64,000 nt of DNA, taken from NCBI GenBank assembly GCA_030599585.1, contig JAUVNS010000005.1, positions 96,001 through 160,000 on the forward strand, in the 5' to 3' direction. Shown here one piece after another: positions 21,876-28,314 of the stretch; positions within the stretch are counted from its first letter, which is position 1, and every line of letters starts with the position of its first letter. The notes beneath the pieces were generated by a model. It saw only the letters and a program-made list of their open reading frames with translations, did not search any database and was not told the DNA's origin. Made by a program: the position numbers and the translations under genes. Origin of the DNA: Promethearchaeota archaeon. GTDB lineage: Archaea; Asgardarchaeota; Lokiarchaeia; Sigyniarchaeales; SOKP01.

Positions 21876-22394
21876 TTAATAACTTTGACGGTCTAATATT
21901 TTTGTTGTTAATAATTCAAAAGCCTTCTGGACATTTTCTCCAGATTTACTTGAAATTTTAAGATAATCAAATAATTTGAAAGCATCTTGAAAATCTGAAG
22001 CGTAATCATCGGTTACCATGATATCTTCAGTTAGATCGTTTTTTGTTCCTAAAAAAAGAATAGGCAAATCAGGATCACCTCTACGGCAAAGAGTTACCCA
22101 CTCTTCTAGTTTTTCTAAAGTCATTGGACGAGTTAAATCAAAAAGTAGTAAAGCTCCTTTCGCACCTAACACATAACTCTCTAACAGAAATCTAAACCTT
22201 TGTTGTCCTCCAAAATCCCATAATTGAAGTGTACAATGTTTGCTATCGATATTTACCTCTTTAAGAAAGAATTCCACCCCAATTGTCATCCTCGTTTCAG
22301 CACTAAACTTACCTTCTACGTAACGATGAAGAAGTGTGGTTTTTCCTACTCCTCCTTCTCCTGCAGTAAGTATTTTTAAGATAAACTTCTTCAT
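21876..22394 (-). CDS. Rab-like small GTPase
   Basis: GEGGVGKT, TIGVEF, WDFGGQQRF, GTKND, SSK. Confidence 0.92.
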   Translation of the reverse strand: MKKFILKILTAGEGGVGKTTLLHRYVEGKFSAETRMTIGVEFFLKEVNIDSKHCTLQLWDFGGQQRFRFLLESYVLGAKGALLLFDLTRPMTLEKLEEWVTLCRRGDPDLPILFLGTKNDLTEDIMVTDDYASDFQDAFKLFDYLKISSKSGENVQKAFELLTTKILDRQSY

Positions 22395-23185: not shown

Positions 23186-25297
23186 GTGAAACATATAGCT
23201 AACCTCGGAATAAAGCATTTCCTCTTGGATGAGAACATTAATCAGTTTTTCAACAGTATACCTATTCCATCATATATTTGGCAGAAAACTGAAAACGACT
23301 TTATATTGATTGATTATAACAACGCAGCTTTAAAAGTTACCAAAGGGAAGATTAAGGATCTCCTTCACGAAAAAGCTTCTGTAGTACATAAGGATCGACC
23401 TGATATCATAGATGCAATAAATAAATGTTTTCGTGAAAATAAAAGCGTTTCAGAAAAACTAGAATATCTTATGAAAACGACTGGAGAAAAGGTATTTATT
23501 TCTCTAAAAATTTACCACTTTCCTCCTGATCTGATAGTTGTTCATATAAAAGATATAACCCAATGGAAATTGGCAGAGAAAAAACTTAAAAACTCTGAGG
23601 AGAAGTATAAATTGTTATTCGAAAAGTCTCCAATTCCTATTGTGATTACTGATTTTAAGGGTATCATAATTGATTGTAATAAAGCTACTGAGCAACAGTT
23701 TGGTTACTTTAAAAAATATCTCTGCGGAAAAAACTACTTAAATTTAGGGATATATTCTCCGGATTTAATTCCATTACTTAAAGAAAGAATATCTCAACTA
23801 GAACGGGGCGAATCAACTAAACCCTTCGAACTTGAAATAACTAAAAAGGACGGAAGTATATCGTGGATATATAATCAAATGTCTTTAGTTAATGCGGGGG
23901 GGGGAAAATTGATTCAATCTTTTATAATGGATATCACGGAGCGAAAAAATTTCGAAAAAAAAATTCAGCGCAAACTTGAGAACGAAAAATTCATTTCCAC
24001 GATTTCTTCGAGTCTAATTCGTACTGTAGACATTGATAGAGCAGTAAGCAAGGCAGTCCTAGAAATGGGGGTTTTTATTGGAGCTGTACGCGCTTATATA
24101 TTACTATTCAACGAAGAAGAATCGCTTGAGTTTTACATTCAAGAATGGTGCCTTGAAGAAGTAGAACCTCAATTGATTAACTTAACGACTATAAGTAAAA
24201 ATAGATTTCCTTGGATATTTGATGTAGGGAGCAAAAATGAAATGATACTGATTAAGAACTTATCAGAAATTCCAAAGGAAGCAATCAAAACTAAGGAAGA
24301 ATTGGAAAAATTGAATATAAAATCTTTACTTGGTTTTCCAATTACTATAAACAAGGAATCCTATGGATATATAGGATTCGACAATATTCAAAATATAAGT
24401 GAATGGGAAAAAAAGGATTTCGAGATTTTTAAAACGACTTCTGAGATTATTGGTAATGCGTTAGAACGCAAATGGGCTGAAGAAACTTTAAAAGGAAGTC
24501 ATCAATTGCTTGCTGGTGTTATTTCTTCTTTAACTGAAGTAATTTATCTTGTGGATAACCATTTTAATGTTGTTTGGGCTAACAATGTAGCAAAACAAAT
24601 GTTTGGTTCACGATTAACAGGAAAAAAATGTTATGGAGTATTTTCACATAGGGGTAAACCATGTAAAGAATGTCTAGCTGTTGAAACATTTGAAGATGGA
24701 AAAATACATGAAAAAGAGAAAATCCTGACAAATATAGATGGGAAAAAGAAAATTTACTGGAGTACATCAAGCGTAGCAGGTTTTAACATAGAGGGAGAAA
24801 GGGAGTTAGCCGTTTTGATACTTCGAGACATCACAGAAAACAAAAAGATGGAAAAATCATTGATTGAATCTGAAAATAACTTAAGGTTGCTGAATAAAAG
24901 CCTTCTTGAAAAAATAGAAGAAAGAACCAAAGAATTAAAGATGTCTGAAGAGACATATAAGAAAATATTAAATGATTTAGACGTTGGATTTTACAAAGGT
25001 GAGTTCAAGGGTAAATTATTAATGCATAATTCTGCTCTCAACACTATCTTAGGATTAGATACATCGATATCTCTAATTGGTTCTACATCAACTCGGTTTT
25101 TTAATGATTTAAACGTACAAAAGCGTTATGATGATGAATTATTGGAGAAAGGTTATGTTACTAATTTTAAAGCCCAACTCAAGAATTCCAAAGGGGAGAG
25201 TATAACAGTTCATTTAAATTCTCACTTGATAAGGGATCATGAAGGTAATCCCAAAGAGGTCGAAGGAATTATTGTTAAATTTATAGAAGAAACCTAA
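23186..25297 (+). CDS. Multi-sensor protein PAS-PAS-GAF-PAS-coil-PAS with no output domain
   Basis: DITQWK, DITERK and DITENK PAS ends; YGYIGFD GAF; C-x9-C-x2-C in the third PAS; no His-kinase H/N/G boxes. Confidence 0.8.
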   Translation: MKHIANLGIKHFLLDENINQFFNSIPIPSYIWQKTENDFILIDYNNAALKVTKGKIKDLLHEKASVVHKDRPDIIDAINKCFRENKSVSEKLEYLMKTTGEKVFISLKIYHFPPDLIVVHIKDITQWKLAEKKLKNSEEKYKLLFEKSPIPIVITDFKGIIIDCNKATEQQFGYFKKYLCGKNYLNLGIYSPDLIPLLKERISQLERGESTKPFELEITKKDGSISWIYNQMSLVNAGGGKLIQSFIMDITERKNFEKKIQRKLENEKFISTISSSLIRTVDIDRAVSKAVLEMGVFIGAVRAYILLFNEEESLEFYIQEWCLEEVEPQLINLTTISKNRFPWIFDVGSKNEMILIKNLSEIPKEAIKTKEELEKLNIKSLLGFPITINKESYGYIGFDNIQNISEWEKKDFEIFKTTSEIIGNALERKWAEETLKGSHQLLAGVISSLTEVIYLVDNHFNVVWANNVAKQMFGSRLTGKKCYGVFSHRGKPCKECLAVETFEDGKIHEKEKILTNIDGKKKIYWSTSSVAGFNIEGERELAVLILRDITENKKMEKSLIESENNLRLLNKSLLEKIEERTKELKMSEETYKKILNDLDVGFYKGEFKGKLLMHNSALNTILGLDTSISLIGSTSTRFFNDLNVQKRYDDELLEKGYVTNFKAQLKNSKGESITVHLNSHLIRDHEGNPKEVEGIIVKFIEET

Positions 25298-25836
25298 GAA
25301 TACCTTTTTTTATCTCTATATTCTTTAACTGATACCTTTCTTCCTTTTAATCTATCGTTATTTATTAAGGTGTCTTCGATTGCTTTAATTTCCGCTCTTG
25401 TATTAATCTCAATGTTTTTCAGCTGCTCGAGGATTTCCTTTTCACCCAGCCCTTTATTATAAAACACCTTGAATCTCTTAATCACTTTCTCACTATAAAA
25501 AGAATAGTGCCCGTTATAAAAAATAATCAGCCAATCCTTCTTATTTTGATTTTTTGATAATTTGTACATTTTTTCTTGTACTTGAGCTAAGGGGCGTTTT
25601 AATCTTCGCGCCACTAGTTTATCTTCAATTACATTGATATTGCCTAAAAATTTATTCAATTTCTTAGAAAACATTAAAGTGGGAACATAGGAAATACCAA
25701 ATAAGACTATAGTAATAATTGTAATAATTATAGCAGCGATTTGATTGAAGAAAAATACGATGAGAATAATAACTATAAGAATTATGAACCACTTTCTTCC
25801 AATTGTCTTTAATGCTTTTGCAAATTTTCCGGGCAT
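25294..25836 (-). CDS. Hypothetical membrane protein (N-terminal TM hairpin)
   Basis: Hydrophobic N-terminus and basic C-terminal domain; ATG start preferred over track start 25848. Confidence 0.65.
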   Translation of the reverse strand: MPGKFAKALKTIGRKWFIILIVIILIVFFFNQIAAIIITIITIVLFGISYVPTLMFSKKLNKFLGNINVIEDKLVARRLKRPLAQVQEKMYKLSKNQNKKDWLIIFYNGHYSFYSEKVIKRFKVFYNKGLGEKEILEQLKNIEINTRAEIKAIEDTLINNDRLKGRKVSVKEYRDKKRYS

Positions 25837-25924
25837 ATAAATCTTCAACTTAGAGTTAATCTACTCTTAATATATCTTATAATGTATACTTTAAAAACAT
25901 TATTTATAAGAAAATAACAAAATC

Positions 25925-26123
25925 AGTGATAATCATTAACCACATTTACGATTCCGGGTTCGGATGGTACCGGGTACTATCCTGAATTACCATGACCGTA
26001 GCCGAAGCTACAGTTTGCAAGTTCCCATAGATTTTCAACTACAGTACTATCTGCAACGCAAAACAGTTTAACTTCCGGCGTTGTAGCTAATTGCTACGAG
26101 ATTATGTGGTTAAAACTATCACT
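25925..26123 (-). repeat. Inverted repeat flanking the 5S gene (candidate processing stem)
   Basis: Arms 26104-26123 and 25925-25945 pair over about 20 bp; the mismatches are G-U pairs only on the minus strand. Confidence 0.75.
25952..26078 (-). rRNA. rrf: 5S rRNA gene, circularly permuted (canonical nt 46-117, UUCG linker, canonical nt 1-51)
   Basis: The re-ordered 117-nt sequence folds into 5S helices I-V, with loop C CCAUCCGAAC, the helix III AA bulge, loop E AGUA/GAA and a GAAA-capped helix IV. Confidence 0.9.
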
Positions 26124-26363
26124 AACAACCATTTTATAACTTTGGCTATATTATCGTAAAATGCTTCATTTATATGGTTGTAAGTAATAGGAATAGTACA
26201 AGCTAGTAATTAAACTTTTTCATAATAAATCGTTAAACTTAAAAGACTATATATTGAATTGTTAGTTTTCTACATATCCCTTAAGATTTTTTTTATATGT
26301 ACTCATCTTATAAATAATTAAAAATAAGCATATGATTAAAAAGCTAAAACTCAAATATTTATT

Positions 26364-26727: not shown

Positions 26728-28314
26728 ATGACTAACGATTTAGAAAAAGTTTCCGGAATAGGTAAAGCAACAGCAGACAGATTGAGAACGGCTGGCATTG
26801 ATACAGTTGAAAAATTAGCTTCAACGACAACAGAAGAATTAACTGAATTAAAAATTAAGGGAGTAGGCGAATCTACAGCTTCAAAGTATATTAAAAACGC
26901 TCAAAAATTAATTAAAGAAAAATCACCTGATCTTGAACCTCAAATAAAGAAAGAAGATCCTCCATCCAAGCCGGAAAAACATCAAAAACTTGAACCATCT
27001 AAAAAACAAAAGTCTGAACCAACTAAAAAACAAAAGCCAGCAAAAAGTGGAACTCTTAAAGAATTAATAAAAAAACAAGCAGAATGTAATATTGGACTAG
27101 TCGGCCATGTCGATCACGGTAAAACTACCCTAGTTAAAGCCCTTACGGGTGATTGGACTGATAGACACTCTGAAGAACAAGAACGGGGTATTTCTATTAA
27201 ATTAGGATATTCTAACGCAACAATTCTATATTGTCCTGAGTGCGACGAATATTTAACATACTATATGGCGGAGGTTGCTAGAAAAAAAGGACAACCTAGA
27301 TATAATTGTCCAAACTGTTCAAAAACCTTAGAATTTAAAAGAAATATCTCCTTTGTTGATGCTCCAGGTCACGAAATTTTAATGGCTACTATGTTGAGCG
27401 GGGCTTCTTTAATGAACGGTGCTTGTTTGTTAATTTCAGCTGATGAGAAATGTCCTCAACCACAAACTAGAGAACATTTAGAAGCGTTAAATATTGCTAG
27501 TATAAAAAACATCATAATTATCCAAAATAAAATTGATGCTGTTTCAAAAGAACAAGCTTTAGAAAATTATAAACAGATTAAAGAATTTGTGAAGGGTACT
27601 ATCGCTCAAAATGCACCTATTATTCCAGTTTCTGCCGTGTTTGGAGCAAATCTTAATTTAATCGTTCGAGCGTTTGAAGAAATAATTAAATCACCTGTAA
27701 TTCATGAGGACGAGGAGTTCCAATTTCTAGTTGCTCGTTCATTCGATATAAATCGCCCCGGCACACAAATTAACGATTTAAATGGTGGTGTTATTGGTGG
27801 ATCGGTTTTAAAAGGAACGGTTAAAGTTGGAGAAGAAATTGAGATCAGACCGGGATTACGAGTTAAAAATAAATATAAACCCATCAGAACCAAAATAGTT
27901 AGCATAAGTCAAGGATCTAATTTTTTAGAAGAAGCCAAGCCAGGAGGATTAATTGGATTAGGAACTATGTTAGATCCTGCTATGACGCGGGGAGATTCTC
28001 TTATAGGACACTTAGTTGGTAGACCGGGCACACTGCCTGAAATACTCTCTGAAGTCGAAGTTCAAGTAAATCTTATGGAAAGAGTGCTAGGTACCGAGGT
28101 TCAGATGAAAGTTCAACAGTTGAAACACAACGAGAAGTTATTACTCGTCGTTGGAACGGAAAAAACAGCTGGAACTGTAATAAAAATCTTAAAAGATTCA
28201 TATATTCTTAGTTTGAACCCTCCAATTTGTGCTCCAGTGAATTCAATTTTTGCGATTTCAAGAATTATAAATCGCCGTTATCGTTTAATAGGTTATGGTA
28301 AGGAGATAATCTAA
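26728..28314 (+). CDS. eif2g: Translation initiation factor aIF-2 gamma subunit with N-terminal HhH domain
   Basis: NIGLVGHVDHGKTT, EEQERGISIKLGY, CPEC/CPNC, DAPGHEILMATMLSGA, QNKID, RSFDINRPG, YRLIGYG. Confidence 0.95.
   Translation: MTNDLEKVSGIGKATADRLRTAGIDTVEKLASTTTEELTELKIKGVGESTASKYIKNAQKLIKEKSPDLEPQIKKEDPPSKPEKHQKLEPSKKQKSEPTKKQKPAKSGTLKELIKKQAECNIGLVGHVDHGKTTLVKALTGDWTDRHSEEQERGISIKLGYSNATILYCPECDEYLTYYMAEVARKKGQPRYNCPNCSKTLEFKRNISFVDAPGHEILMATMLSGASLMNGACLLISADEKCPQPQTREHLEALNIASIKNIIIIQNKIDAVSKEQALENYKQIKEFVKGTIAQNAPIIPVSAVFGANLNLIVRAFEEIIKSPVIHEDEEFQFLVARSFDINRPGTQINDLNGGVIGGSVLKGTVKVGEEIEIRPGLRVKNKYKPIRTKIVSISQGSNFLEEAKPGGLIGLGTMLDPAMTRGDSLIGHLVGRPGTLPEILSEVEVQVNLMERVLGTEVQMKVQQLKHNEKLLLVVGTEKTAGTVIKILKDSYILSLNPPICAPVNSIFAISRIINRRYRLIGYGKEII
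26977..27048 (+). repeat. Three degenerate 24-bp tandem repeats in the aIF-2gamma linker
   Basis: KHQKLEPS/KKQKSEPT/KKQKPAKS. Confidence 0.6.

Follow-up and report, generated by a model that had tools for sequence, protein, structure and literature searches.

Organization of the 5S rRNA locus

The window analyzed here comprises 64,000 nt of the genome of a Promethearchaeota archaeon of the Loki type (Asgardarchaeota, Lokiarchaeia; GenBank assembly GCA_030599585.1, contig JAUVNS010000005.1, positions 96,001–160,000 of the forward strand). Its subject is a gene for 5S ribosomal RNA (5S rRNA) on the minus strand at positions 26072–25952. The gene is circularly permuted: the 3′ half of the 5S rRNA comes first, followed by a UUCG loop and then by the 5′ half. 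It is flanked by a divergent aIF2-gamma gene and by a gene for a 184-residue protein without known family. The leader and the trailer carry the two strands of a motif of the bulge–helix–bulge (BHB) type. The features of the locus are listed below.

26207..26221, minus strand: B-recognition element (BRE)/TATA-like element, the probable precursor promoter from its sequence, with a predicted start near 26185
26104..26113, minus strand: outer processing stem, 5′ arm, 10 bp; perfect complement of 25945–25936 and present in the precursor fold
26083..26097, minus strand: small hairpin of the leader, lying between outer stem and BHB, from the fold; similar hairpins occur in many relatives
26072..26081, minus strand: BHB leader strand, with ACG at 26081–26079, CCGG at 26078–26075 and the bulge AA/G at 26074–26072; predicted cut 26073/26072
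26007..26072, minus strand: 3′ half of the 5S rRNA, encoded first (3′ strand of helix II, helices IV and V, 3′ strand of helix I)
26003..26006, minus strand: UUCG tetraloop, which caps helix I by linking the canonical 3′ end to the 5′ end
25952..26002, minus strand: 5′ half of the 5S rRNA, encoded second (5′ strand of helix I to helix III and loop C)
25948..25957, minus strand: BHB trailer strand, with CCGG at 25957–25954, the bulge AA/U at 25953–25951 and CGU at 25950–25948; predicted cut 25952/25951
25936..25945, minus strand: outer processing stem, 3′ arm, which pairs with 26104–26113
25952..26072, minus strand: product, 121-nt circular 5S rRNA; the joint of 26072 to 25952 is found in RNA runs X5 and X11

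An earlier note on this DNA had given the letters and coordinates of the leader strand, the trailer strand and the 121-nt inner piece, and all of these were found as described. Its description of the inner side of the BHB as relaxed also holds, a U–C mismatch being left unpaired there. Of the BHB substrate form, the 4-bp central helix, the 3-nt bulge on the 3′ side of each strand and the outer helix are present; because of the mismatch, the inner helix of the strict form is not, and the motif is a relaxed BHB only. The trailer CCGG doubles as the 3′ strand of helix III. Relatives, loci, contigs and RNA runs are cited below by working labels (L###, G### and X##).

Identification as the 5S rRNA of the genome

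Rfam at its cut-off and ARAGORN gave no match anywhere in the window, and Rfam hits to snoZ199 and mir-367 were dismissed as chance. Below the threshold, two partial hits to RF00001 (16.5 and 14.7 bits; cut-off, 38) covered the halves in swapped order, and a score under the cut-off in genomic order is what is expected of a permuted gene. The 3′ half combines its partial RF00001 hit with a profile match at model positions 47–115 and with compensatory pairs, and RF00001 model positions 27–51 match 25975–25952 in the 5′ half.

For comparison, a reference profile was built from the unpermuted 5S genes of another Asgard family, independently of the permuted loci. On this profile, the rotated and ligated piece scored 41.7 bits over positions 4–115, the genomic order 21.2 bits and forms with the junction shifted by 1–6 nt 26–37 bits. 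A covariance model of the permuted core was then run on 135 genomes of the family and matched in 120 of them, in 12 of the 13 genera and nearly always as a single copy. In the 122 loci cut out for comparison, the rotated form outscored the genomic order in every one (122/122). Compensatory changes on both sides were found in 16/26 and 18/26 predicted 5S helix pairs. A search of the assembly found no 5S-like sequence other than 26072–25952, nor is the ligated junction sequence present in it. The genome also encodes uL18, the protein partner of 5S rRNA. Partial second 5S-like copies were seen in three genomes (G109:C109, G019:C51 and G084:C211), two of them at contig ends.

Pairing of leader and trailer across the family

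The register of the BHB was chosen for each locus from within ±3 nt; 119 of the 122 loci were on the 5S consensus register and three on −1. In this register the central helix pairs at 4/4 positions in 118/122 loci, whereas none does so at any register shifted by 1–3 nt, and in 114/122 loci the 4/4 helix is accompanied by an outer helix of at least 3 bp. The register that gives the 4/4 helix is the same as the one that restores the canonical 5S. The covariation of the motif in relatives, proposed in the earlier note as a check, is thus borne out. The central helix occurs as CCGG/CCGG, CUGG/CCAG, CUGG/UCAG and CGUG/CACG, the two strands changing in concert, and 12 combinations of site and helix were found among the 122 loci. 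Since the family loci are related, these counts overstate the number of events, and more weight attaches to the distinct helix types. Leader–trailer pairing in the precursor is strongly suggested by this covariation.

Base conservation locates the cuts, because the kept sides are conserved and the discarded sides vary. At the leader cut of 55 loci, the discarded base before the cut is A in 47, C in five, U in two and G in one, and the kept base after it is G in 55/55. At the trailer cut of 55 loci, the kept bases are AA in 55/55, and the discarded base that follows is A in 34, U in 12, G in eight and C in one. The outer-stem motif was found on both sides in 90/118 family loci.

The earlier note had explained the CCGGAA on the two strands as a duplication of exactly six nucleotides, and this part of it did not stand. 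Of the 122 loci, only 46 have the same hexamer on both strands, and in the other 76 the hexamers differ. As the helix meanwhile changes in concert, it is the pairing that is selected and not the repeat, and a true duplication was rejected. The apparent repeat in the window arises from a self-complementary CCGG followed by an AA bulge. The hexamer alone is uninformative, occurring 19 times in the window; what exceeds chance is the register.

Movement of the break point and BHB introns

The point at which the 5S sequence is broken is not fixed. A second position, 18 nt from that in the window, is used in 31 loci and coincides with the start of loop C. The leader bulge of these loci opens with AA, whereas UC stands at that place in the mature RNA; this difference fixes the joint unambiguously by sequence, exactly after the second bulge base, so that the same cut rule is obeyed. 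A third break site with a BHB, in loop B, was found in a genome of another family (L039). Both break forms are present within three genera, and the break has moved several times if these genera are monophyletic. The flanks stay constant while the interior rotates between the break sites, which points to a circular template behind the movement. The leader CCGG is able to pair with either strand of helix III, and this dual pairing is a possible route for the movement of the break.

In addition, 45/122 loci carry one or two inserts of 29–31 nt, 36 of them distinct, at about seven positions. The intron loci are labeled L009–L012, L017–L020, L046, L048, L051 and L080–L142 (45), and almost all of the inserts are 30 nt long despite their unrelated sequences. 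When they are excised according to the BHB rule, the sequence without introns is regained, and for 30/36 inserts the excision agrees with the best alignment. A 4/4 helix with an inner stem is formed by 31/36, compared with a mean of 0.5 and a maximum of 4 in shuffled sequences. In 27 loci, an intron in loop C leaves a 7-nt piece between two cuts, which makes ligation on both sides obligatory.

Two further observations concern individual introns. The intron of L083 (G125), near canonical position 39, contains a near-copy of the adjacent 5S segment from loop B to helix III, and this likeness suggests that it was born by local duplication. The introns of L132, L134, L135 and L141 interrupt the 3′ strand of helix I immediately ahead of the linker loop, and their removal restores helix I and the tetraloop.

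The joint in RNA data

RNA runs were compared with a 251-nt query by shared words. Twelve contain 0.42–0.54 of the query words, about the share expected of the 121-nt product, and runs X19–X24 contain none. Three RNA runs and the DNA-like run X15 were examined over the locus. A single joint was found in the mapped runs, leading from 26072 to 25952 (back 121 nt), in X5 (wetland, 2020; depth, 22) and in X11 (sediment, 2025; depth, 13). The contigs of both runs are 151 nt long, corresponding to 121 nt plus a 30-nt overlap; they form unbranched closed cycles, and no letter differs from the window. There was no depth on the flanks of the locus in X5 or X11. In X15, coverage was even and read through both ends, and no joint was found. 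The exact joint in RNA from two independent studies is in line with the cuts, the 121-nt product and the junction that had been predicted from the letters. The position of the joint in RNA is ambiguous within 6 nt and is consistent with cutting after the second bulge base; its exact position follows from the base conservation and from the loop C break.

A second contig in X11 (depth, 53) differs from the window by one gap and two mismatches, exactly as do the loop C-break relatives L050, L081 and L110. It carries the repeat-free loop C joint, of which only four bases past the joint are visible. A 142-nt contig of X13 with a period of 122 is a hint only, and an X13 contig reaching into the leader may be DNA. 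A loose end beside 25952 in X13 was not counted, the same letters being present in the DNA of loop C-break relatives. As to retention of the UUCG loop, which had also been put forward as a check, the tetraloop lies inside the closed RNA contigs and every 31-mer across it is present; the contigs cannot separate mature RNA from an intermediate.

Distribution among Asgard families

A broader model was applied to 29 families of the phylum, and full-length hits above 40 bits were counted. Such hits to the permuted model were obtained in 19/29 of the Asgard families sampled. Inspection of the sequence in 12 of the 19, and in two further families belonging to the order, showed a permuted gene every time, including in the Heimdallarchaeum-like loci L146, L149–L151 and L155. 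Two single-contig genomes, of 3.08 and 3.33 Mb, have permuted copies. Canonical 5S genes above the Rfam cut-off were found in six other families; weak R2 hits below 40 bits in the canonical-5S families were half-matches and were not counted.

These results bear on whether the permuted gene could be an assembly artefact or a dead copy, namely a tandem array of 5S genes that was collapsed, or a rearranged pseudogene whose normal counterpart escaped assembly. The assembly behind the window is a metagenomic one, split into 52 contigs, and rRNA genes are frequently lost when such genomes are assembled. In two family genomes, a canonical 5S unlike the family's sequence occurs on another contig in addition to the permuted gene (L025 in G072 and L037 in G014), probably through contamination. 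Nevertheless, the gene recurs in 120/135 family genomes, nearly all with a single copy and the same neighbor gene, and is present in single-contig genomes. Its helices show compensatory changes, the DNA-like run reads through both ends without a joint, and the RNA is identical to the window sequence. An artefact or dead copy is therefore extremely improbable.

In other Asgard families (L154, L156, L158, L159, L160 and L163), helix I is extended by a longer, capped GC-rich hairpin, with rings of 128–131 nt. A contig labeled Nanopelagicaceae bacterium (L173; DATKTW010000142.1) carries the 5S motif and the neighbor gene at 86% identity and is probably a mis-binned Loki contig.

Proposed maturation pathway

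The genome encodes two tRNA splicing endonuclease genes (EndA alpha and beta) and RtcB. The catalytic EndA subunit keeps the Tyr, His and Lys residues, and its best matches are crenarchaeal enzymes (E, 1e-33), including the N-terminal loop region. The second subunit is without the catalytic His. The likeness to the crenarchaeal enzymes suggests a heteromeric EndA of the relaxed-specificity type. Among EndA enzymes, heterotetramers of this type are the least strict in recognizing their substrates (PMC4731332), in keeping with the unpaired inner side of the BHB.

We propose a pathway of five steps. The minus strand would first be transcribed together with the leader and the trailer. In the second step, the 10-bp outer stem would join leader and trailer, and their CCGG sequences would pair to give the relaxed BHB. 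An alpha2–beta2 EndA would then cut after the second base of each bulge. In the fourth step, A25952 is joined to G26072, presumably by RtcB, giving the 121-nt ring of canonical sequence seen in the RNA, in which helix III could then form. In the fifth step, the ring would not be reopened and would serve in closed form as the 5S of the ribosome. That the permuted 5S undergoes splicing-type excision and circularization by EndA and RtcB, as in the second to fourth steps, is in our view very probable.

Several observations weigh against this reading. The central helix contains a mismatch in 4/122 loci and pairs at 3/4 positions in some other families. The BHB was not recovered when the precursor was folded for minimum energy, the leader CCGG finding its partner in the other CCGG of helix III and not in that of the trailer. 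The contigs give neither RNA ends nor levels and leave mature RNA and intermediate indistinguishable, short circles may be over-represented in libraries, and the library type of run X15 is not on record. Template switching of reverse transcriptase can produce joints at which five or more bases are repeated (Danan et al., PMC3326292), and the joint in the window, with its 6-nt repeat, is of the kind flagged there. Small amounts of circular 5S are also known from archaea whose genes are ordinary, perhaps as products of decay (PMC3326292, PMC12558985).

The artefact-prone repeat would suit an alternative in which the precursor is cut and left unligated. The working 5S would then be linear, permuted and nicked beside helix III, as is the permuted linear form known in brown-algal mitochondria (PMC4267664), and the joint would stem from template switching or library ligation. 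Against this, two studies that used different libraries gave the joint exactly to the base, within unbranched cycles, and a second, repeat-free type of joint is indicated. Moreover, in the 27 loci that have an intron in loop C, failure to ligate would cost helix III a 7-nt strand. The break also falls in the arm that binds uL18 and uL5. A nicked 5S is very unlikely.

Whether the ring of the EndA/RtcB pathway stays closed is a separate matter. It may be an intermediate only, made by the same first four steps and reopened at the helix I loop to give a linear 5S. There are precedents in the permuted tRNAs, which mature through a circle that is later reopened (Soma et al. 2007, as cited in PMC4267664), and in the archaeal 16S circles, which are re-linearized (PMC12918454). 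Moreover, the loop sequence is variable, related families have ordinary linear 5S genes, and the ends of an RNA cannot be revealed by assembled contigs. In the 5S gene, however, there is no spacer to excise, the four-base linker closing helix I directly. The linker loops of relatives likewise have four bases, mostly UNNG, and most loci preserve the U at the first position and the G at the last, as would be expected of a stable cap; other lineages lengthen helix I with the capped GC-rich hairpin. The RNA contigs contain every 31-mer that spans the loop, and permuted signal recognition particle (SRP) RNA and many archaeal 23S rRNAs remain circular (PMC4731332, PMC12918454). Reopening is therefore possible, with the weight of these points leaning against it. 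The cap without spacer, the loop inside the RNA cycles and the precedent of SRP RNA and 23S rRNA make it fairly probable that the ring stays closed as the ribosomal form of the 5S.

Neighboring genes and transcription signals

The aIF2-gamma gene (26728–28314, plus strand), divergent from the 5S gene, encodes an N-terminal helix–hairpin–helix domain and a Lys/Pro/Glu-rich linker. The 184-residue protein is encoded directly downstream of the 5S gene (25294–25848, minus strand) and has a hydrophobic N terminus and no Pfam match; its gene adjoins the 5S gene in nearly all family loci of sufficient length. A Ras-family small GTPase, a typical eukaryote-like Asgard protein, is encoded at 21876–22394 (minus strand). 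An AT-rich box resembling the BRE/TATA-like element was also found upstream in relatives. A sigma-70 promoter scan gave a chance-level result and concerned the wrong promoter type. The leader from about 26190 to 26115 (minus strand) folds as a long hairpin, the arms of which recur in relatives, and one RNA-library contig extends to 26164 in the leader and may be DNA. No terminator was found.

Comparison with known systems and implications

The closest parallel is the SRP RNA of Thermoproteus tenax and T. uzoniensis (Plagens et al. 2015, PMC4731332). It is likewise a permuted essential RNA with a leader–trailer BHB and a heterotetrameric EndA, its function is restored by the circle, and it is missed by standard gene finders. 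In contrast to that single genus, the present case concerns a ribosomal RNA in most Asgard families sampled; the 5S break occurs at three sites at least, BHB introns are present too, and EndA is the presumed enzyme. An SRP RNA match in our own set (L180; G000:C22:27027–27283) scored 63.8 bits, below the family cut-off of 96.5. Circularly permuted tRNA genes, a further parallel, are also found in Thermofilum pendens. In those of Cyanidioschyzon merolae (Soma et al. 2007, cited in PMC4267664), the 3′ half comes first, the ends form a BHB and the splicing product is circular. According to the citing paper, that circle is reopened by removing the intervening sequence, whereas the 5S linker is a four-base loop on helix I.

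Archaeal pre-16S and pre-23S rRNAs are also circularized through a BHB stem by EndA and RtcB, and circles, such as the circular 23S rRNA in archaeal ribosomes, may persist there (PMC12918454; PMC7758197). Their genes are in normal order with the joint outside the conserved core; the Asgard 5S joint is inside it and obligatory. A 2026 paper states that archaeal 5S is not processed through circles (PMC12918454). The minor 5S circles of Sulfolobus and Halobacterium (Danan et al., PMC3326292; PMC12558985) resemble the present case in being circular archaeal 5S reads. They differ in arising at low level from ordinary genes, with variable ends, and in being proposed decay products, and the Asgard gene, unlike theirs, cannot yield a normal 5S without the joint. 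In brown-algal mitochondria, the 5S also has shifted ends and a helix I closed by a hairpin; unlike the Asgard 5S, it has its ends at a three-way junction, and its final product is still permuted, without BHB repair (Valach et al. 2014, PMC4267664). In our literature search for a permuted or circular 5S gene, outside which most subscription journals lay, this organelle paper was the only one found. The one published permuted 5S is not repaired by splicing, and a spliced permuted 5S is a substrate for which this search gave no report.

The 5S rRNA is usually treated as universal, linear and easily found. In the closed Heimdallarchaeum genomes, no 5S gene could be predicted by the authors (PMC8813620), and the permuted gene explains such missing predictions. 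On balance, we lean slightly towards a general picture in which most Asgard lineages, including those closest to eukaryotes, use a covalently closed 5S that the tRNA splicing machinery makes from a permuted gene; in Loki-type archaea, the break would hop and 30-nt introns would come and go, with up to three splicing events per 5S. The permuted gene would make tRNA splicing essential for ribosome assembly. The presence of permuted and linear genes in different Asgard families raises the question of which state was present in the archaeal ancestor of eukaryotes.
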